DNA of 64,000 nt from a virus, in the IMG/VR virus record IMGVR_UViG_3300036770_006434, positions 1-64,000 of that record; one strand, written 5' to 3'. The notes under the pieces were generated by a model. The model worked only from the letters and a program-made list of their open reading frames with translations, searched no databases and had not been told where the DNA came from. Shown one piece after another: positions 12,461 to 51,398 of this stretch (the stretch's first letter is position 1; every line of letters begins with the position of its first letter). The translations under genes and the position numbers were made by a program.

Positions 12461-13465
12461 TCACTTCCGCGCGTCATAGTGCAGGTTAATCACCTTGAAC
12501 GACCCGCCGGCATGGTTGATAACGACGCCCTCAAACGGCTGCCCATCAATCGTTTCCAGTTCCTCACTGTAACGCTTGACCAGTTCCGGGGTGAGGATAA
12601 CGTCTTGCTGGATCATCGGGACGGTCGGCAACCCCAGTTGCGGCGCAAGGCGATGAATATACAAGGGGTGCCCCTTGGTGGCGTAACGTCGCTCGTCTAT
12701 CAGCCAAGTAGAGAAAAGGGCGAGCCCAACGGGTAGCTTGCTATGTGGATTGTGAGCCTTCGTCTGGATACCTTGGCCGTATTGCTCGCCGCGGACGCAG
12801 AGGGAGACGCCTTCATTGTCACGGCAAAACCGCTCCAACTTGGCAAGCACTCCATACCGCCGCTCGTTACGGATATAGTGGTTGTCGCTGGTTTCCTTGT
12901 AAAGGAACGAACGACCTCCAACTCCACGGGATACGTCCAAAACACCGGGTGAGACGTGGGATATGGCACAGAAGGCCGAAAATGACTGTCCGTCAATTTT
13001 CAGCGCCACATCCACAGACTGTCCATACGGAAGGTCGTCCACCGACTGCCACCGCTCTTCGTCAGTTTTTGGAATGCCGAATCCATACGGGCCGCTAGCG
13101 CTCAAGTCTTGCGGCGCAGGGGCTTCGTATTTGACAATGCCTAGCACGGCAGTGATGTCCAACCCCGGAGTGAGCGGGCCGGTGTAGCCCACGTTGACAG
13201 GGTCCTCAACAATGCCGAAACTGAAAACGCCGCGTAGCTTGATAGCCTTCACGCGGTTGCTGCGGGCCTTGTAGAATGTAGCCCACGGGGCGTCCGGTAA
13301 CACGCTGTCCGGCTCAATGAAGACGCAGAGGTCTCCGGCGCGCCACTTCCCGCGCGGCACAACGGCTTTGTAGCCCTTGATTTGGGCAATATCCAAAGAG
13401 TCGGCGTTAGGATGGGTGACAACCGACAGGATCGGTTGGATGGAGGCTAGGATAGAGGTGTCCAT
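12461..13465 (-). CDS. RNA ligase, DRB0094/Rnl5-like family
   Basis: N-terminal HPNADSLDIA...GDLCVFIEPDSVLP module, motif I KIDGQS, GEQYGQGIQ, C-terminal EGVV...SFKVIN. Confidence 0.85.
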   Translation of the reverse strand: MDTSILASIQPILSVVTHPNADSLDIAQIKGYKAVVPRGKWRAGDLCVFIEPDSVLPDAPWATFYKARSNRVKAIKLRGVFSFGIVEDPVNVGYTGPLTPGLDITAVLGIVKYEAPAPQDLSASGPYGFGIPKTDEERWQSVDDLPYGQSVDVALKIDGQSFSAFCAISHVSPGVLDVSRGVGGRSFLYKETSDNHYIRNERRYGVLAKLERFCRDNEGVSLCVRGEQYGQGIQTKAHNPHSKLPVGLALFSTWLIDERRYATKGHPLYIHRLAPQLGLPTVPMIQQDVILTPELVKRYSEELETIDGQPFEGVVINHAGGSFKVINLHYDARK

Positions 13466-19032: not shown

Positions 19033-19488
19033 CTAGGCAGCTATCTTTGCGCGCTTCGCCATTCGGTCATAGAGCACGACATTGACGCAAGAAGCCAAAT
19101 TCATGCATACCCTTGTCGGTATCATAACGCGACGCGGACACCATGAAAGAACACGTTCGCCAAGCGTATTATCCTCCGCTCCAAAAACGTAGAATGCTCG
19201 TTCCGGGTGAACGAAATCAACCAAAGATTTGGCGTCCTCAACGAGTTCAACGGCGACCGGGATACAGTCATAGGGAACTACGTCATGAAGGTCATCCACT
19301 TGAAGCATGGGCATATGTCTCCACTGTGCCATGGTGTCGCAAGCATGTTTTTTGTAACGCATACCACTGACGGCAAGCATGGCGGCATCATAACAACCAC
19401 AGGCGCGCAAAACGCCAGCGATATTTGCGGGTGTCTTTGGGTTGTCAAGACCTATTGCGCAATAACCTCTTGAAAAATTGCTTTTCAT
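19033..19488 (-). CDS. TrmH/SpoU-family RNA 2'-O-methyltransferase
   Basis: LDNPKTPANIAGVLRAC, YVFGAED, IPTRVCMNLASCVNVVLYDR. Confidence 0.88.
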   Translation of the reverse strand: MKSNFSRGYCAIGLDNPKTPANIAGVLRACGCYDAAMLAVSGMRYKKHACDTMAQWRHMPMLQVDDLHDVVPYDCIPVAVELVEDAKSLVDFVHPERAFYVFGAEDNTLGERVLSWCPRRVMIPTRVCMNLASCVNVVLYDRMAKRAKIAA

Positions 19489-44859: not shown

Positions 44860-44949
44860 CGGTGAGCTAAGGTATCGCGCCCTAGGGCCAGAGTTACTGT
44901 CCCCCACGAAGGTTCAAACTTCGGTCAATGCTTCATTGATTAACTCACC
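44860..44949 (-). tRNA. tRNA-Ser(TGA)
   Basis: Acceptor GGTGAGT/GCTCACC, G73, stem CGAAG/CTTCG, loop TT-TGA-AC, long V arm, T-loop CGCGATA; no full CCA. Confidence 0.7.
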
Positions 44950-44955
44950 ATAAAA

Positions 44956-45035
44956 TGGCGCAAGCGAGAGGGAATGATCCTCCATGTATCCAGTTACCCT
45001 TTCTGCGGTTTAGGAAACCGAGGGGATACGCCTGC
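44956..45035 (-). tRNA. aberrant tRNA-Arg(CCT)-like, D arm missing
   Basis: Acceptor GCAGGCG/CGCTTGC-G-CCA, loop TT-CCT-AA, T stem present. Confidence 0.5.
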
Positions 45036-45045
45036 GTAAGATTGT

Positions 45046-45546
45046 CTACCGATGTGCCGCGAACCAAGCATCTCTCTCCGGCGCTCGTCGCCCGGTTTCG
45101 GCGCTCACGAAGGTTTCCATCTCCCCGTCGCGCCCCATGATGGCGTCTGCATGTTTGATCATCAGCTGGTTGGGGCACACGAACGGGCCGCGCACAGAGA
45201 CGATTAACTGATAGGCATCGGCATACGATATACCATGCCAAACTAGCCAGATAAAGGCGGCGGCGCTGGAGCGGGAAACGCCGGCAAAGCAATGGAAGAG
45301 GATACGATGATTGAGCGCAGTCTGGGCGTAGATTCCCAGTAGCCGGCGCATGGTATCCTCCGTGACCGCCTGTTTATTCGCGGGGTCTCCGGTATCGTCA
45401 AATACGAAGCTGTGCAAAGCGAAGTCCCCTTTGAAAGCGCGAATATCCGGCGCGGGCTGCCGAGAGTCGCGGATAGAGATGATGTGGTCTAGGGGAGTGG
45501 CAGCGAAGGATGGGACCTCGTGGACGCCGCAGATGAAAAGGGGCAT
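45046..45546 (-). CDS. protein-tyrosine/dual-specificity phosphatase-like protein
   Basis: HIISI, FDD, ILFHCFAGVSRSSAAA (CX5R), PNQLM. Confidence 0.85.
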   Translation of the reverse strand: MPLFICGVHEVPSFAATPLDHIISIRDSRQPAPDIRAFKGDFALHSFVFDDTGDPANKQAVTEDTMRRLLGIYAQTALNHRILFHCFAGVSRSSAAAFIWLVWHGISYADAYQLIVSVRGPFVCPNQLMIKHADAIMGRDGEMETFVSAETGRRAPERDAWFAAHR

Positions 45547-45779
45547 GTTTTAAGGCTTTTTCTTGCGAAAAGGTCTCCAACCAAAACTTATACCAAAGTT
45601 GCGATATTGACGGCCAAAAATGTCATATTTGCTTCTGACAAAAGAAAATTCGGGTTTATACCAAAGAAAATATAGCCATTTTTGTCTAACCCAATCAGAA
45701 AATTGGCGTTTATATCCGGGTGGATAGACCGAAAGCCAAATTTGAATACGTGTTTTTAACGATAATTTTTTCATAAAAT

Positions 45780-45867
45780 TGGCACGAGCGGAGGGATGTG
45801 CGCCCCCGAGGCAGCTTACGCTGCGGCACGTTAGAACCGTGGTTGGCCTTCTGACGCCGACGCTCGC
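45780..45867 (-). tRNA. tRNA-Arg(TCT) with long variable arm
   Basis: Acceptor GCGAGCG/CGCTCGT-G-CCA, loop GT-TCT-AA, V arm GCAGC-GTAA-GCTGC. Confidence 0.7.
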
Positions 45868-45872
45868 AAAAA

Positions 45873-45952
45873 TGGCACGCCCGGGAGGACTCGGACCTCC
45901 GACCTTCTGATCCGTATTCAGACGCTCTGGAATCCAACTGAGCTACGGGCGC
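45873..45952 (-). tRNA. tRNA-Arg(ACG)
   Basis: Full cloverleaf, loop AT-ACG-GA, CCA. Confidence 0.9.
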
Positions 45953-45965
45953 GTAAAGTGAAAAT

Positions 45966-46023
45966 TTCCAACGAGATACCAGAGCCAACGCCGGGACGGC
46001 GCGGCTCATCATAACTGATCGGC
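45966..46023 (+). repeat. attC site 4 (58 bp, R' core GAT)
   Basis: TTCCAAC-GAGAT-ACCAGAGC-CAACGCCG-GGA-CGGCGCG-GCTCATC-ATAACT-GATCGGC. Confidence 0.8.
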
Positions 46024-46622
46024 AAAACCTCCAAACCCAAGAAGGAGAGGAGGTCTTCATGTCTACGCCGCCCGGTATGGAATACGTAAAACTGTGGATG
46101 CAGCAGAGTGCGCTATTCTGGTCTCGGCTTCAAAGTGCCACACTACTGCATACGGGGGTTCTCGCCGCGTGGTATCAAATGGGGCCGACTCACCCGCAAT
46201 TGCGTCTTGGTGTGCTATGCATGGGTGTCGCCATATCGGGGCTTCTCATAGCTATTATGGTTCGTGACGGGCAATATATGGATGCTATGAGAGATAAGGC
46301 TACCTCGGACCATTTCCCCGCGACCGGAAAGGACGCTCCGAGTGGCAGGATGTGCGGATATTTTATCGTGGCGATACCGATGTTGGCCGAGATGACGCTG
46401 GCTTTTAATCAGGTTTGCACATGTCTGAAATGATACCCCTCCATCCAGACGGTGGTCCAAAAGCTATTCGTGTCAGAAGAAGCGATCCCGCCACGAACAG
46501 CATAAGAAAAGAAAAGCAGCCGATCCAGCCGCCAGAGCCAACGCTGGGATTTGCCGTTTTCGCGACTTCACAGGCACAGGTGACGGGTTCGGCAATTTGC
46601 CCAGCGTGGCTCATCTGGGACG
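46017..46622 (+). mobile_element. integron-type gene cassette inside the tRNA cluster
   Basis: Core GATCGGC at 46017 and exact complement GCCGATC at 46519; one plus-strand ORF between them. Confidence 0.8.
46059..46433 (+). CDS. cassette-borne membrane protein (124 aa, about 3 hydrophobic segments)
   Basis: GGAGG Shine-Dalgarno upstream; opposite strand to the phage genes. Confidence 0.75.
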   Translation: MSTPPGMEYVKLWMQQSALFWSRLQSATLLHTGVLAAWYQMGPTHPQLRLGVLCMGVAISGLLIAIMVRDGQYMDAMRDKATSDHFPATGKDAPSGRMCGYFIVAIPMLAEMTLAFNQVCTCLK

Positions 46623-46628
46623 TTGTGA
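46519..46628 (+). repeat. attC site 5
   Basis: GCCGATC-CAGCC-GCCAGAGC-CA[A]CGCTGGG...CCCAGCGTG-GCTCATC-TGGGAC-GTTGTGA. Confidence 0.85.
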
Positions 46629-46711
46629 GAAAGCAGAAAAGAGCTGCGAAGATAATGGTTTTGATCATGAGAAGCAGTATGGTCAGGTTTGCCCACTTTG
46701 TCAAGCGCAAA

Positions 46712-46744
46712 TCAAAGGTGCAGCTACACATCAAAGCTGCACCT
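46712..46744 (-). terminator. rho-independent terminator candidate
   Basis: 10-bp perfect stem AGGTGCAGCT/AGCTGCACCT followed by TTTG on minus. Confidence 0.6.
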
Positions 46745-46864
46745 AAAGTCTTCGGCCGGTGTGGAGATTCTGCGCCAAAAAGAGTCTATTCCCATTTAGC
46801 TGCACACTCCGTTTGAGGCCCATTACCCTCCCCGCGTCCCGCTGCGGTCTGCTCCTGCCGAAAG

Positions 46865-46972
46865 TGGAGCCACCGACAGGGGTTAACCCTGTCTCGCAAG
46901 AACACGCGACGGTGTCTGGACGAGGATTCGAGAAACGTGAGACACAAACGAGGTGTCGGGTTTTTCAGTGGC
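46865..46972 (-). ncRNA. tRNA-Thr(CGT)-like RNA, no D arm, long structured insert
   Basis: Acceptor GCCACTG/CGGTGGC-T-CCA, hairpin GACAC-CTCGTTT-GTGTC, T stem ACAGG/CCTGT. Confidence 0.5.
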
Positions 46973-46978
46973 ATAAAG

Positions 46979-47142
46979 TGGAGCCCCTAGGTCGGATTCG
47001 GCACCGACGACCTCGCTTGTCGCGCGTCTTCATCGCAGACCCTCAATTGATGAGTCCACTAAGAGACGCACGCTTGGGTGACCAACTGAGAAGCGCGCTC
47101 TCCTGATGACCGATATTTGGTAGGTCCTGAGCTACTGGGGGC
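46979..47142 (-). ncRNA. tRNA-Thr-like RNA with expanded D loop and about 70-nt anticodon-loop insert
   Basis: GCCCCCAG-TA-GCTC...GAGC-G-CGCTT...AAGCG-AGGTC-GTCGG..CCGAC-CTAGGGGC-T-CCA. Confidence 0.55.
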
Positions 47143-47148
47143 GTAAAG

Positions 47149-47344
47149 TGGATGTCAGCTCTAGGCGTGCCCCTGATGGCCAGTTATTCCCCGACTTGGG
47201 CCATTCCGCGCGACCGGATTGGAGCCGGTTTCGGTGTTCACCTCTTCAGGTGCAGAACGATATAGTGTCGGGCAAGATGTCTACTGCACAGGGCACAAGG
47301 TTGGATTTCTCCGTCCAGTTGTAGACCCACGCATAGAGCTGACA
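47149..47344 (-). ncRNA. about 195-nt structured RNA closed by an 11-bp stem, ending TCCA
   Basis: TGTCAGCTCTA/TAGAGCTGACA plus GCGTG/CACGC; several internal hairpins; sits between tRNA genes. Confidence 0.6.
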
Positions 47345-47347
47345 AAA

Positions 47348-47423
47348 TGGAGGTCCGTGTCGGATTTTAACCGACGAATAACGCATTACAAAGGCGTTCC
47401 TGTAAACACTGAGGCAACGGACC
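47348..47423 (-). tRNA. tRNA-Thr(TGT)
   Basis: GGTCCGT/ACGGACC-T-CCA, loop TT-TGT-AA. Confidence 0.8.
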
Positions 47424-47429
47424 GAAAAC

Positions 47430-47504
47430 TGGCAGGCCCGTTCACTTGCCAGACACTTTGGAGGTGCCGGCGTCACTGTTTCGCTTCTAGTCGCACACGG
47501 GCCA
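47430..47504 (-). ncRNA. tRNA-Trp(CCA)-like RNA lacking a T arm
   Basis: GGCCCGT/ACGGGCC-TG-CCA, hairpin GGCAC-CTCCAAA-GTGTC. Confidence 0.45.
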
Positions 47505-47861
47505 AGGTGCGTGGCGATTGACAGTAATCTTACATTTAATCTTTACAATGAGACGGCTCAGGTGGTGCCTGCCTTATCAATGCAGTCCATTCCAGCTTTC
47601 ACGCTGGGCAATCCCTTGTCGGGGCCTTGTGCGTGCGTCTCAAATTGGTGGGGCCTGCCGCACCGGTAGGGTGCAACTATCGGAGGGTCCCACTCCGTGA
47701 TGCTGTTTCAGGTCGCTTATCCATTCCCTAACGATGGCCTAGCCAAAACTATACTTCGCTATCTCGGCTCTGGTTCAGGATACCCTCAATGACAGTAAAA
47801 GTGAATAAAGCGGAACTGCACGGTAAATGCGCGCTGTGTATCGTGCTTGACGTGTGTAGAA

Positions 47862-47939
47862 TGGTGCCCACGGTGTTGGTTGCAAACACACTGTGCGGAT
47901 TTTGAATCGTCGCCGCCTCTCCTCTTGGGCTACGTGGGC
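47862..47939 (-). tRNA. tRNA-Leu(CAA), short variable loop
   Basis: GCCCACG/CGTGGGC-A-CCA, loop TT-CAA-AA, T-loop TGCAACC, bulged anticodon stem. Confidence 0.7.
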
Positions 47940-47944
47940 AAAAA

Positions 47945-48018
47945 TCGCGATGAGGGTGGTTGCAACCCTACTGACAGAATGTTTAAGATTCCGGCCTCTA
48001 CTCTTGGGCTACATCGCG
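47945..48018 (-). tRNA. tRNA-Leu(TAA), short variable loop
   Basis: CGCGATG/CATCGCG-A, loop CT-TAA-AC, T-loop TGCAACC, no encoded CCA. Confidence 0.8.
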
Positions 48019-48025
48019 GAAAGAT

Positions 48026-48099
48026 TGCCCTCGGCTGTGGTTGCAACAGCACTGTTATCCTCCTAAGGGATACGTCTCCTACTCTTGGACTACGAGGGC
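48026..48099 (-). tRNA. tRNA-Leu(TAG), short variable loop
   Basis: GCCCTCG/CGAGGGC-A, loop CT-TAG-GA, T-loop TGCAACC, no encoded CCA. Confidence 0.8.
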
Positions 48100-48104
48100 G
48101 AAAT

Positions 48105-48180
48105 TGGGGGCTCAGGCGGGATTTTCACCCGCAACCTTCTCCGTATGATGGAGCCGCGCTGGACATTGCGCCACTGAGCC
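48105..48180 (-). tRNA. tRNA-Met/Ile2(CAT)
   Basis: GGCTCAG/CTGAGCC-C-CCA, loop AT-CAT-AC. Confidence 0.8.
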
Positions 48181-48198
48181 GTGAAAGGAAATTGTCCT

Positions 48199-48438
48199 TC
48201 AATTATATAGCCACACATGGTCCTTAACCTCCCGTGGCATGGGCGCGCTGTCCGGGTCCTCCACCACTGCGCCCAGAGCCCGACGGACCTTGGCTTTGCG
48301 CCCCTTAGAGAGATACTCTTTGGCCGCGCGGCTGGGTTTGTGGTGGGGTTTGCCGTCCATGCGCGCTTCTTGCACCTCTTTGGCGGTTGGCTTGTAGCGA
48401 GAGACATCGAGAGGATCGCGGCGGCGGGTGTTGCTCAT
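48199..48438 (-). CDS. basic hypothetical protein
   Basis: 79-aa ORF between tRNA genes. Confidence 0.55.
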   Translation of the reverse strand: MSNTRRRDPLDVSRYKPTAKEVQEARMDGKPHHKPSRAAKEYLSKGRKAKVRRALGAVVEDPDSAPMPREVKDHVWLYN

Positions 48439-48475
48439 AGGAGTGGGTGATAGGTTTCGGTTAGAGTATAGAGCG

Positions 48476-48751
48476 CTAAAACCTGTTTAGTGCGGCCATC
48501 ATTCTCTGGCGCCCCACCGGGTTAGCCGAATGCACGGTAACGCGCGGCGGCGCAAAACCCCTTGTGAGCACCGCTTCCTCCAACCACAGGACAACATCAT
48601 AACCGTCTCCATTACATTCGTCGCCCAGATCGTGGTCGAGGCTCAGGTCGGTAACCTCACCGGTTTGCAACAGGGCGATGGTCTGCTCTGGGGTGTAGGT
48701 TCGGGTCCAGCCGGAAGGGGTGGGGCGGAGGTCATCTAGGTAGACTTTCAT
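48476..48751 (-). CDS. cyclic-phosphate-processing receiver-like domain protein
   Basis: MKVYLDDLRPTP.GW...LSLDHDLG....GYDVVLWLEE...VHSANPVG..RM. Confidence 0.8.
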   Translation of the reverse strand: MKVYLDDLRPTPSGWTRTYTPEQTIALLQTGEVTDLSLDHDLGDECNGDGYDVVLWLEEAVLTRGFAPPRVTVHSANPVGRQRMMAALNRF

Positions 48752-48841
48752 TGAGGTGGAGTAGGTTAAAGGCTGGCCGCGCCAGTGTGTCAAGCACTGA
48801 CGGGGCCGAAAACTCACTGTGCGCGTGGAACAGGAGCTAAG

Positions 48842-48928
48842 TGGCTGGGGCGGCAGGATTTTAACCTGCAAGTCTTTTCAGACGGTAGGTTCAAAGCCTA
48901 CTGCGTTTAACGGTTCCGCCACGCCCCA
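48842..48928 (-). tRNA. tRNA-Gln(TTG) with long variable arm
   Basis: TGGGGCG/CGCCCCA-G-CCA, loop CT-TTG-AA, V arm GTCT-GAAA-AGAC. Confidence 0.85.
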
Positions 48929-48939
48929 GTGAATTTACC

Positions 48940-49156
48940 ACAAATCCCTTTAGCTCGGTTTCGCACTTGGACGCGAGACTAGACCGACTCGCCCTTACGC
49001 GCCACGGGAGGGGATCAACATAGCGGGGTTAGCCGCTGTGGTAAAGATGGCCAAGGCCCAGTCCATCAGTATTGCGCTATGCGCGAGCGGGAGTCGAACC
49101 CGTCCGCTAGGGGACTTGCACCCCGCTGCATGATGGAACGAGACCGTCTCGTCCTT
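48940..49156 (-). ncRNA. about 215-nt multi-hairpin RNA with two T-loop-like hairpins
   Basis: GGGG-TGCAAGT-CCCC, GGG-TTCGACT-CCC, CATAGCG/CGCTATG, ACGAGA/TCTCGT; no good ORF. Confidence 0.45.
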
Positions 49157-49161
49157 GAAAT

Positions 49162-49254
49162 TGGCTGCTCCGGCAGGGAACGATCCTGCAATATCCTTGT
49201 AAGGGTCTTCTGCTTAACGGGCAGTGGCTTTACGCAGTTTTAAGCTACAGAGCA
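49162..49254 (-). tRNA. tRNA-Asn(GTT) with long variable region and C33
   Basis: TGCTCTG/CGGAGCA-G-CCA, loop CC-GTT-AA, 19-nt V region. Confidence 0.75.
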
Positions 49255-49260
49255 ATGAAA

Positions 49261-49338
49261 TGGTGCGCGCTAGAGGACTCGAACCTCTGATGATGCCGAC
49301 GTGTAGGGTCGGAGCAGTCGCCGCTGTGCCAAGCGCGC
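49261..49338 (-). tRNA. tRNA-Val(TAC), C33
   Basis: GCGCGCT/AGCGCGC-A-CCA, loop CC-TAC-AC, T-loop TTCGAGT. Confidence 0.85.
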
Positions 49339-49387
49339 AAATGAGATTGATTCCGTATCAGGGAGAATCGGCTGTCGTTCTACAAAG

Positions 49388-49468
49388 TGGCGATTACGAC
49401 GGGGCTCGCACCCGCTACATAACGCACGCGTGACAGGCGTGGGCCTCGGCTTCTTCGGCTTCGTAATC
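49388..49468 (-). tRNA. tRNA-Asp(GTC)
   Basis: GATTACG/CGTAATC-G-CCA, loop CT-GTC-AC. Confidence 0.85.
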
Positions 49469-49531
49469 GTGAAAATAAACAGGCGTCCTATCCGTTATGC
49501 CAACGGCCCCAGCTTGCCGTCCCACATGTAG

Positions 49532-49579
49532 GGTGGCGCGCCTTAATGATGGACTCTGACTGGACTGAGCTAACGCGCC
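49532..49579 (-). pseudogene. internally deleted tRNA remnant (acceptor and D arm only)
   Basis: GGCGCGT-TA-GCTC...GAGT-CCATCATTAAG-GCGCGCC-ACC. Confidence 0.45.
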
Positions 49580-49847
49580 GGAAAACCAAATTTAGCGCCA
49601 ACTCAGTTTGCGCTTTCCGTTTAGCGACGTGATATACAATCGTCCGAACAATCGAACTACCCAACATTCACCTTCTCTGATGTATATCCAATTTTTTAGC
49701 CCCCGTATTACGACCGAATCTCCATCTCGAAGACAGAGCCAGTGACTGAAAAGCATAACAAGGAGGGTATCGTTTTGGGTAAGCCAACAATGGCCGCGTG
49801 GGATGGGAGTATGTATAGACATAAAATAAATGTGTATTATATTAAGA

Positions 49848-49923
49848 TGGTCAGTCCGGCTGGTATCGCGCCAGCTTAAATCCTAGTCCCAAACTAGGTG
49901 CCTCACTTTTCGGCCACGGACTG
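49848..49923 (-). tRNA. tRNA-Pro(TGG)
   Basis: CAGTCCG/CGGACTG-A-CCA, loop TT-TGG-GA, T-loop CGCGATA. Confidence 0.85.
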
Positions 49924-50046
49924 TAAAGATTGCCCACCCCGTTGCGCGCGAGGTGGGCTTCTCAAACGCCGCCCAAGGACGAGGAAACAAGATCGTCCTA
50001 CATGGGTTTGTCTCTTGATGACTGGGTGCGTTATATCGAAAGATTG

Positions 50047-50119
50047 CAAGCAGGTTGTGGTATCGCGCCACACGAGCCGCGACCTTATGAGAGTCCGGCG
50101 CACCTTGTGCTACCTGCCA
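50047..50119 (-). pseudogene. degenerate tRNA-Met/Ile2(CAT)
   Basis: Loop CT-CAT-AA, T-loop CGCGATA, imperfect acceptor, CAA instead of CCA. Confidence 0.5.
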
Positions 50120-50399
50120 TGTAAATTTAGAGGGGAGAGCAGCCCTCGGCATCCCGCGTCCGGTCCGCGCGCCGCTCTCCCCGTTATTGTCTATCTGATG
50201 TTACCGATCCTTGCGGTAGTCATTGTCGAAAATCACGACAATTCCTAGGCAAGCGAACAGGGCTACGAATGCGAGCATTGGTAAGCGCCTTTCTGTCCTT
50301 CGTCTGCGGTCCCGTGGGAGCGCGCAGGGGTTTGCTATATTCCTGATTCCGCACGCTTCAACGGGTGAAACCACCGGCCAAAGTGAGTGTGGGAGGAAA

Positions 50400-50532
50400 T
50401 GGATTTGAGCGGGCTGGGCGCTAAACCAGCTGGGCAGGCCCCACATGCATGGCGACATCGTCTAATGCTGCCGGTTCGATTCGTTCGCCACGCTTCAGGA
50501 CTGTGTGTCTGCTTTCCACACCGCCGCTCAAA
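50400..50532 (-). ncRNA. tRNA-like RNA with structured central insert
   Basis: TTTGAGCGG/CCGCTCAAA-TCCA closing stem, D-like and T-like arms, TGGCGA/TCGCCA insert stem. Confidence 0.5.
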
Positions 50533-50538
50533 TTGATC

Positions 50539-50697
50539 CCGGGTTCGTTCGGAGGTTAGAAGACCGTGTTAGCGAAGTTTTTTAACTCTTTCTGTAGCTC
50601 AAGGGACAGAGGATAGTGAGTTAAAGAACAGACTGACTGGTCGGCCGGGGTCGTAACCCGTTTTTATCGCCGACCATTTACCTACGAACGAACCCGG
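50539..50697 (-). ncRNA. about 160-nt structured RNA, 13-bp closing stem
   Basis: ccgggttcgttcg (50539-51) / cgaacgaacccgg (50685-97); internal ttaactc/gagttaa and tggtcggc/gccgacca stems. Confidence 0.55.
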
Positions 50698-50923
50698 AAA
50701 AATGTTTTGCCAACCGGGCGGATTGTAGCACTCGGGCACTAGACCCCGGGCCACCTTGAACCGCCTAGTCTATTCGGATCGCGGCCTGATCAGGACTGCC
50801 ACGGCTTCGGGCCGAAGCATCGGACCCACGGAGACTTACTAACGTTGCCAAATGGGGCGTGCCACTGTTGGCGGCACACCTTGTAGCCGGCTGTTATCCC
50901 ACCCGGCGGCGGTTGACAAAAGG

Positions 50924-51078
50924 TTTTGAGCGGTCCCTAAGTTCGGCAAGGGGTCTATGGGTAAGCCCCAGACTTCGACTCCGGTTTGCTACATCCTGCG
51001 TCTTGTGGCCACGCCACGCAGTGTCTCGCCTCTCGGTGGGAATCCTCGGCCGGTCGCTGTGAAAAGCGCCGCTCAAAA
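50924..51078 (-). ncRNA. about 155-nt structured RNA, 10-bp closing stem shared with 50400-50532
   Basis: TTTTGAGCGG/CCGCTCAAAA. Confidence 0.5.
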
Positions 51079-51132
51079 TGGTGCCCCCTTTTCTCCCTAG
51101 TAACGAGCAGCTGTTCTCGCTGGGAAGAGGGC
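51079..51132 (-). ncRNA. 54-nt acceptor-stem minihelix ending ACCA
   Basis: GCCCTCT-TCCC..CGAG..CTCG..GGGA-GAAA-AGGGGGC-A-CCA. Confidence 0.45.
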
Positions 51133-51139
51133 AAAAATA

Positions 51140-51229
51140 TGGCTAGGACGGTGGGTATCGCGCCCACATCGCGGGTTGCCCCGCTTGCCGGATTTGGAGT
51201 TCGGTGCATTTCTTGTCTGCCACGTCCTA
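51140..51229 (-). tRNA. tRNA-Trp(CCA) with long variable arm
   Basis: TAGGACG/CGTCCTA-G-CCA, loop CT-CCA-AA, V arm GCGGG-GCAA-CCCGC, T-loop CGCGATA. Confidence 0.8.
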
Positions 51230-51398
51230 ATGAAAATTGATCCCCGCAGCAAGTGTCGCCCAACGGGCTATCCTGCACCGAAGATATCCTACTTTGCAAA
51301 CCTCGGATAAATGGGAGGTTGATTTCGGGCCGTCTTACAGGGAACGGCTGGCTTTGTGTCCGGCATCGTCCTGTAAACGCGCCGTAGTTTGTCCAAGA

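Follow-up and report, generated by a model that had tools for sequence, protein, structure and literature searches.

Array of tRNA genes and their variable arms

Textbooks tie the long variable arm of bacterial tRNAs to Leu, Ser, Tyr and Sec. The tRNA array described here, in which this rule is broken in both directions, lies within the first 64,000 nucleotides (the window, meaning the whole stretch analysed) of virus record IMGVR_UViG_3300036770_006434, a single contig of 190,671 bp and 53% G+C from an uncultivated phage whose direct terminal repeats and estimated completeness of 100 indicate a complete genome. Three tandem tRNA-Leu genes in the array have variable loops of 5 nt (TAG), 6 nt (TAA) and 5 nt (CAA), and extra hairpins occur on the Arg(TCT) gene (5 bp, tetraloop GTAA), the Gln(TTG) gene (4 bp, GAAA) and the Trp(CCA) gene (5 bp, GCAA); the enlarged variable region of Asn(GTT) parses into a stem of only 3 bp (Table 1).

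The total of 23 genes was obtained by scanning for a 7-bp acceptor stem plus T arm and then parsing the cloverleaf. ARAGORN reports nine tRNA genes in the array at its default setting and 18 at a lowered threshold, and the Rfam tRNA model reports eight at the gathering score and ten above 29 bits in a lenient scan. The order of the genes is Glu, Lys, Cys, Ala, Gly, Tyr, Ile, Trp, Met, Pro, Asp, Val, Asn, Gln, Met, Leu (three), Thr, Arg (three) and Ser, with a few small open reading frames (ORFs) and larger tRNA-shaped units between them. According to the parse the array is a non-redundant set with one decoder each for 18 of the 20 amino acids, and the codons read by the unusual tRNAs are heavily used in 184 phage ORFs (760 UGG codons; CAA, 45% of Gln codons; AGA, 14% of Arg codons). 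Nineteen of the 23 genes encode CCA followed by a T-rich tail; the four lacking an encoded CCA are Leu(TAG), Leu(TAA), Ser(TGA) and the second Met gene (50049-50118, minus strand). Promoter and terminator scans yielded nothing decisive.

Table 1. Coordinates of the tRNA genes under study and of other features in the window.
Feature	Coordinates	Strand	Evidence
tRNA array, 23 parsed tRNA genes, divergent	44861..52281	-	ARAGORN, Rfam, acceptor/T-arm scan and cloverleaf parse
tRNA-Leu(TAG), type I, 74 nt, variable loop ACAGT, A73, no encoded CCA	48026..48099	-	ARAGORN default, parse
tRNA-Leu(TAA), type I, 74 nt, 6-nt variable loop GTCAGT, A73, no encoded CCA	47945..48018	-	ARAGORN default, parse
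tRNA-Leu(CAA), type I, variable loop ACAGT, A73, CCA encoded	47862..47939	-	ARAGORN only at lowered threshold, parse
tRNA-Arg(TCT), 18-nt variable arm 45808-45825 GCAGC-GTAA-GCTGC, T loop CGCACAT, G73, CCA	45780..45867 (parsed gene 45784-45867)	-	Parse, minimum free energy folding, synteny, conservation
tRNA-Gln(TTG), 15-nt variable arm 48870-48884 C-GTCT-GAAA-AGAC-TT	48842..48928 (parsed gene 48846-48928)	-	ARAGORN default; Rfam 55.4 bits; parse
tRNA-Trp(CCA), 20-nt variable arm 51168-51187 GCGGG-GCAA-CCCGC, T loop CGCGATA, G73	51140..51229 (parsed gene 51144-51229)	-	ARAGORN default; parse
tRNA-Asn(GTT), 19-nt weakly paired variable region 49190-49208, U1-A72, G73	49162..49254 (parsed gene 49166-49254)	-	Rfam 34.8 bits; ARAGORN lowered threshold
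tRNA-Tyr(GTA), canonical long arm, internal reference for arm geometry	51544..51630	-	ARAGORN, Rfam, parse; 81% identical to Tyr of related phage G001
tRNA-Ser(TGA), canonical long arm, G1-C72, G2-C71, G73, arm flanks 4 nt/1 nt	44861..44949	-	ARAGORN lowered threshold, parse
cREC_REC (cyclic-phosphate processing receiver) domain protein gene, within array	48476-48871	-	Pfam PF20274 E 2e-28; PHROG 1479
DSP-like phosphatase	45046-45546		
SpoU-family methylase (2'-O-methylase)	19033-19488		
RNA ligase, DRB0094 type (TIGR02306-like)	12461-13465		
DnaE-type polymerase	55191-58316		
DNA methylases, HNH nuclease, TnpB-like gene, lysozyme	window, around array		

Both halves of the pattern that an earlier note had read from this DNA are reproduced by the cloverleaf parse, namely three tandem Leu genes with 5-6-nt variable loops, a common D loop (CAAGAG(T/G)AG...) and the T loop TGCAACC, and stem-loop variable arms on Arg(TCT), Gln(TTG) and Trp(CCA) together with a 19-nt variable region on Asn(GTT). 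Acceptor stems are paired at 7/7 and T stems at 5/5 positions in all seven genes. In unconstrained minimum free energy folding, Leu(TAG) and Leu(TAA) take a four-arm cloverleaf, and Trp, Gln and Arg(TCT) take one with five arms. When the isolated hairpins are compared with composition-matched shuffles, only 16 of 5000 shuffles are as stable for Trp, 10 of 5000 for Arg(TCT) and 19 of 5000 for Gln; the corresponding value for the canonical Tyr arm is 44 of 5000. Arg(TCT), Gln and Trp accordingly have the class II form, a variable region longer than 10 nt that folds into a stem-loop, with stems of 4-5 bp, whereas the Asn region has the length but its stem is at the level of chance. A reading of the extra arms as second anticodon arms is ruled out, their loops being tetraloops and not 7-nt, anticodon-like loops.

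Type I tRNA-Leu genes

The three Leu paralogs differ on both sides of the pair at 15 of 20 stem pairs, yet 58 of the 60 cells remain paired and the D, variable and T loops are fixed. These counts derive from the structural parse, the MAFFT alignment of the three genes being out of structural register. All three genes keep A73, A14-A15 and U48, the last being the final U of the variable loop, and the D stem of Leu(TAG) reads GTC/GAC instead of GCC/GGC.

The Leu signature GTAGCCCAA..AGAGGC..ACAGT is found in IMG/VR at at least 121 loci, with a cloverleaf-consistent tRNA of 73-76 nt at at least 112. Among the 96 unique type I Leu sequences listed, 95 have a Leu anticodon (TAA 42, TAG 20, CAA 20, GAG 10, CAG 3) and 94 have A73. 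The window genes share the shape of this phage family (a 73-76-nt cloverleaf with 7/5 acceptor and T stems and a 5-6-nt variable loop ending in CAGT), its D arm G-TA-GCC-CAA...AGA-GGC with A14 and A15, its ACAGT loop, A73 and a Leu anticodon. They lack the canonical elbow, defined by a D-loop GG and a TTCRA T loop, and have TGCAACC and ..GAGTAG.. in place of the TTCGAAT and ..GGCAG.. of the family and of the Streptomyces coelicolor type I tRNA-Leu (A18/G55 instead of G18/U55). T(T/C)C-type T loops occur in 93 of the 96 listed members and TGCAA-type loops in only 3, and an exact scan of IMG/VR for the Leu signature as it stands in the window, variant elbow included, gives no matches. On these features the window genes are classed as members of a widespread phage family of type I (arm-less) tRNA-Leu, and their elbow is classed as a variant within that family and not as a defining failure. 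A scan with the cREC protein leads to one distant phage, L201, holding a type I Leu(CAA) of 74 nt with the D arm and ACAGT loop of the window genes and a canonical elbow.

The closest characterized counterpart is the type I tRNA-Leu(CAA) of S. coelicolor, which like the window genes combines a Leu anticodon with a class I cloverleaf of 73-76 nt and a 5-nt variable loop, and which is charged by the single LeuRS of that organism (Fan et al., 2019, PMC6614811). In Escherichia coli the identity of tRNA-Leu is reported to reside in A73, the A15-U48 pair and the elbow and not in the arm, and armless variants stay active (Giege and Eriani, PMC9976931). For the phage type I tRNA-Leu, A73 and the tertiary core, and not an arm, are the expected basis of recognition. 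The family, of which the window genes are a new instance, is common but little discussed (the word "phage" has no occurrence in PMC6614811), and the Leu half of the pattern is ordinary for phages; because arm-less Leu tRNAs are common in phages, it mainly corrects a textbook generalization.

Arm gain and loss among related phages

Homologues of the DnaE-type polymerase with 50-78% identity are found on contigs of ∼200 kb, the best two (78% and 65%) on contigs of 128-210 kb. Scans of viral, metagenome and genome contigs with the polymerase gave nothing closer than locus L001 at 63%, where no tRNAs were found, and L002 at 56%. The record behind L002 (also L200) is a complete 205-kb IMG/VR phage, here called G001. 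The window and G001 have in common 18 tRNA genes of the same anticodon in conserved order: Lys, Cys, Ala(TGC), Gly, Tyr, Ile, Trp, Pro, Asp, Val(TAC), Asn, Gln(TTG), Leu(TAG), Leu(TAA), Leu(CAA), Arg(TCT), Arg(CCT) and Ser(TGA); Glu(TTC) is displaced between the two arrays.

At these shared positions the arms are distributed differently. The five Leu genes of G001 are long-armed (83-90 nt), whereas its Trp (71 nt), Asn (78 nt), Gln (74 nt) and Arg(TCT) (77 nt) genes are short, and the amino acids with extra arms are others: Lys(TTT), at 91 nt, and Ala(TGC), at 89 nt with G3:U70 and the arm GAGC-GTAA-GCTC. The two phages thus resemble each other in lineage, in array and in bearing extra hairpins, of 4 bp in G001, on class I isotypes, and differ in which isotypes bear them, so that related phages have both gained and lost the arm. 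L082, more distantly related, combines long arms on Cys and Met with canonical Leu genes, and L004 has long-armed Met and Ile(TAT). Array order and anticodon are conserved between the window and G001, while sequence and arm are labile. In this lineage the arm is gained and lost across amino-acid families at fixed array slots with acceptor and anticodon marks unchanged.

What appears to be new is that tRNAs for Arg, Gln, Trp and Asn bear extra arms and, most of all, that the arm switches from one isotype to another between related phages with conserved array positions. Literature searches, with subscription journals outside their coverage, found no paper describing long variable arms on phage Arg, Gln, Trp or Asn tRNAs, and the word "phage" is absent from the 2020 review of non-canonical tRNAs (PMC7609411). 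Among isolated phages, blastn of the array gives matches only to its canonical Arg(ACG) gene, in eight records.

Some resemblances link long-armed genes of different isotypes. The D arm of Gln is Leu-like (GUGGCGGAA), and its A15/U48 pair and arm also resemble the class II Leu genes of relatives. Compared by interior alone, Trp and Arg(TCT) are nearest the long-armed Ala and Lys of G001, with margins of 0.02-0.05 over other tRNAs; the interior of G001 Ala is 0.72 identical to window Trp, and its arm motif AGC-GTAA-GCT recurs in the window Arg(TCT) arm. Neither a remoulding of Gln from a Leu gene nor a shared mobile hairpin is claimed, given identity margins of only 0.02-0.05.

Conservation and selection

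Contigs assembled in Logan from a lake-water run of a different study, here called X5, hold a relative of the phage. Across 45776-45960, which includes both Arg genes, X5 shows 7 differences in 185 nt, and the 4 of these that are listed fall outside Arg(TCT); across 49162-49268 (Asn) it shows 4 in 107 nt, and across 44952-45042, which holds an Arg(CCT)-like unit, 2 in 91 nt. The neighbouring coding piece 48199-48440 has 43 differences in 242 nt. Taken together with the compensatory pairs among the Leu paralogs and with a non-redundant set for 18 of 20 amino acids whose codons are in free use, this conservation makes the odd tRNA genes look real and under selection.

The earlier note had held that canonical arms in relatives would mark these genes as drift or pseudogenes. 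Relatives do show canonical arms on these isotypes, but they also bear extra arms on other isotypes, and the genes look selected and not decayed. That the odd genes are decaying copies in a redundant array is the least probable of the explanations considered here, and a very unlikely one. It would account for the several genes that escape covariance and heuristic finders, for the mismatched anticodon stem of Leu(CAA), for an Asn arm no better than chance and for the loss of elbow motifs in 20 of the 23 genes. However, decay would not be expected to leave acceptor and T stems fully paired in all seven genes, compensatory changes in the Leu paralogs, hairpins far stabler than their shuffles, or Arg and Asn genes conserved in X5 far above coding DNA, and the elbow changes themselves look compensated (C56 with a D-loop RG in 14 of 15 genes, A56 with RT in 6 of 6).

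X5 also differs from the window by whole segments. It lacks a 753-bp block of small ORFs (45961-46713) and 73 bp (49269-49341) that match the Val(TAC) gene almost exactly, and because of these two absences the array is taken to change by gain and loss of whole genes.

Identity elements and charging

Identity rules were taken from PMC9976931 and positions were read off the cloverleaf parse. A substrate of GlnRS, or of GluRS plus amidotransferase, is described there by U1-A72, pairs 2-71 and 3-70, G73, a 10-25 pair, U35 and G36; the phage Gln gene has every one of these marks (U1-A72, G2-C71, G3-C70, G73, G10-C25 and a UUG anticodon with U35 and G36) and so conforms to tRNA-Gln. For Asn, where identity is assigned to the anticodon and G73, both are kept along with U1-A72. 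For Arg, where it is assigned to A20, C35, U/G36 and A/G73, the Arg(TCT) gene keeps C35, U36 and G73, and A20 is not safely numbered in the odd D loop (GTCAGAAG). [quoted passage not shown]

Altered identity elements, which the earlier note had proposed, are therefore mostly unsupported, since cognate marks are kept on the three Leu tRNAs and on Gln, Asn, Trp and Arg(TCT). The synthetases that it suggested might lie elsewhere in the genome were not found either: the complete genome has no match to families PF00587, PF00133, PF00579, PF00749 or PF00152 (the ArgRS family was not searched). Nor does it match the CCA-adding enzyme family PF01743. Because these five synthetase families and the CCA-adding family are without a match, host enzymes must act on the phage tRNAs.

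We consider it fairly probable that the odd tRNAs are working elongator tRNAs, charged by host synthetases with the amino acid that the anticodon specifies, and that in this phage lineage arm length is not tied to identity and changes quickly. From sequence we infer expression, processing and cognate charging, as well as any benefit of the arms: the tRNAs would probably be excised from array transcripts, and host synthetases would probably charge them according to the anticodon. Arg(TCT), Gln, Trp and, weakly, Asn would then be cognate-type tRNAs with an added short hairpin, which should be tolerated because their synthetases read mainly the anticodon and acceptor end. Class I synthetases such as ArgRS and GlnRS approach from a side that leaves the variable region of the tRNA turned to solvent, and this would account for tolerance of an extra hairpin. 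The extra arms are most likely a tolerated, fast-changing feature of a phage tRNA cluster rather than an indication that the genetic code has changed. If charged correctly, these tRNAs would be evidence from nature that an extra arm is tolerated by several host synthetases and by the ribosome, and they would offer ready natural scaffolds for tRNA engineering.

A number of observations weigh against this account. Some concern whether the genes are ordinary functional tRNAs: the Rfam tRNA model at E ≤ 10 misses all three Leu genes, Trp and Arg(TCT), the last of which ARAGORN also misses at every threshold tried; the anticodon stem of Leu(CAA) is weak owing to two mismatches; and 635 of 5000 shuffles are as stable as the Asn variable stem, which does not stand out from chance. 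Because only 3 of the 23 array genes retain both elbow motifs in their canonical form (T(T/C)C and GG), neither folding nor recognition by host enzymes can be taken for granted. Acceptance of the arm-less Leu tRNAs would depend on the host, because neither E. coli LeuRS nor one other Streptomyces LeuRS charges the type I tRNA-Leu of S. coelicolor (PMC6614811). Others concern the comparisons. X5 cover is absent over the Trp and Leu genes and says nothing about them either way. Same-anticodon identities between the window and G001 are mostly at background (0.52-0.69 versus 0.58 ± 0.04, only Tyr being higher at 0.81), so that orthology between the two arrays rests on gene order and not on sequence. 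The top two matches of the Gln interior are class II Leu genes of relatives (0.68 and 0.67), followed by an unrelated long-armed Cys at 0.65, a small margin because of which descent of Gln from a Leu gene is not claimed. Finally, G73, present in all four long-armed tRNAs, is also the discriminator base of tRNA-Ser.

Because Ser identity is arm-dependent and anticodon-blind and all four have G73, mis-serylation is a serious rival to cognate charging. Charging of at least one long-armed tRNA by the anticodon-blind SerRS or LeuRS, with partial misreading of UGG, CAA, AAY or AGA during infection, would draw on the combination of G73 and an extra arm, the two Ser identity elements given in PMC9976931 and PMC7609411, and on the report that a change from A73 to G73 can switch Leu identity to Ser (PMC9976931); in the Gln tRNA the D arm and the arm flanks are also of Leu type, and there is an A15/U48 pair. 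On the other hand, none of the four has G1-C72 and G2-C71, pairs that are conserved in the tRNA-Ser of E. coli and of most bacteria (PMC9976931) and that are present in the phage's own Ser gene and in all three Ser genes of G001. Arm geometry also differs: the unpaired flanks are 4/1 nt in 3 of 4 Ser genes of the phage family and 5/2 in G001 Ser(TGA), whereas they are 1/2 in Gln (as in the Leu genes of relatives), 1/3 in Arg(TCT) (as in Tyr), 3/3 in Trp and about 3/5 in Asn. Despite sharing G73, the four depart from the Ser-type arm in its 4/1 flanks, arm orientation being beyond what sequence alone tells. In addition, Gln and Asn keep U1-A72 and a cognate acceptor end, and the Trp, Gln and Asn tRNAs are the phage's sole decoders for these amino acids, in slots filled by ordinary tRNAs in G001. 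Misreading would also harm the phage's own proteins. The non-cognate charging raised in the earlier note is accordingly disfavoured, there being one decoder per amino acid for heavily used codons, and we regard it as improbable. Deliberate missense decoding or private recoding is no less improbable; its best candidates would be Gln(UUG), with a leucine-type class II body and G73, and Trp and Arg(UCU), with 5-bp arms and G73.

Two known systems serve as precedents for misreading. Allo-tRNAs (Mukai et al., 2017, PMC5389517) resemble the window genes in being bacterial or phage-borne, in having a long variable arm with non-Ser, non-Leu anticodons and in occurring in part in phage tRNA clusters, but their identity is Ser or Ala and their acceptor and T stems are laid out as 8/4 or 9/3, whereas the tRNAs under study are all 7/5 and the long-armed ones carry acceptor marks matching their own anticodons. 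Nematode nev-tRNAs (Hamashima et al., 2012, PMC3333845) likewise join class II architecture to the anticodons of class I amino acids, but they are eukaryotic and charged with leucine against the anticodon, whereas the long-armed window tRNAs have cognate marks and no A73.

Variable arms and host tRNA nucleases

A further explanation, raised in the earlier note, plausible on published precedent and compatible with cognate decoding, is that the arm changes are an anti-defence trait: loss of the Leu arm and addition of hairpins elsewhere might make these tRNAs poor substrates or decoys for host nucleases that recognize the anticodon domain or the variable loop. The cut made by Retron-Eco7 PtuAB in E. 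coli tRNA-Tyr falls in the variable loop; the tRNA-Tyr of phage SP15 has a longer loop, escapes cutting and requires that loop to block Retron-Eco7 (PMC12673091). VapC52 cleaves tRNA-Ser at the variable loop, and it cleaves mycobacteriophage tRNAs as well (PMC13273310), and tRNA arrays have been discussed as anti-defence units (PMC12803027). The SP15 case resembles the window in that an altered phage variable arm bears on the interplay with a host tRNA nuclease, but it is an experimentally proven change of length in an existing class II arm, whereas the window shows gains on class I isotypes and loss from Leu. The phage also carries an RNA ligase, an array-internal cREC_REC protein, a SpoU methylase and a DSP-like phosphatase, and its array retains gene order and anticodons while the tRNA sequences change rapidly. 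Relaxed constraint would explain fast turnover equally, however, and the arms differ between tRNAs in sequence and geometry. An anti-defence role is thus a tentative explanation and on balance unlikely, though less so than misreading, and ordinary cognate decoding with tolerated arms is preferred. If the arm changes do protect from host tRNA nucleases, tRNA architecture, beyond the sequence of the anticodon loop, would join the arms race between phage and host.

Elbow motifs, neighbouring genes and additional units

The unusual elbow extends beyond the Leu genes. Position 55 of the T loop is G in 15 of the 23 array genes, none of the A56 genes has a D-loop GG, and the T loops of G001 are likewise NGCRA. 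The elbow looks rewired across the array, with covariation at 19:56 together with an A18/G55 pair.

The gene neighbourhood, as judged by profile and family searches of the window proteins, is typical of a large tailed phage. The RNA ligase, SpoU-family 2'-O-methylase, DSP-like phosphatase and array-embedded cREC_REC protein together form a possible tRNA repair or modification set.

Several larger units lie between the tRNA genes, all on the minus strand. At 46866-46973 a 107-nt tRNA-shaped RNA has a 7-bp acceptor stem, a T arm and N-CCA with a T-rich tail, and its variable arm is very large; its folding z-score is -3.07, none of 200 shuffles folds as well, and X5 covers 46714-46972. At 46983-47152 a unit of ∼170 nt has tRNA-like ends (GCCCCCA...TAGGGGC-T-CCA) with ∼95 nt extra inside. 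Two units of 130-150 nt, at 50925-51075 and 50403-50533, are each closed by a 10-bp helix, TTTGAGCGG/CCGCTCAAA, and end near a CCA-TTT motif; they match no Rfam family. X5 shows 28 differences in 524 nt across 50214-50737, against 43 in 242 in nearby coding DNA, which suggests that these units are conserved non-coding RNA. The unit at 44960-45035 has a perfect acceptor stem, a T arm and G-CCA without a normal D arm, and its hairpin loop TTCCTAA would present the anticodon CCT; it occupies the slot of G001 Arg(CCT), just before Ser(TGA).

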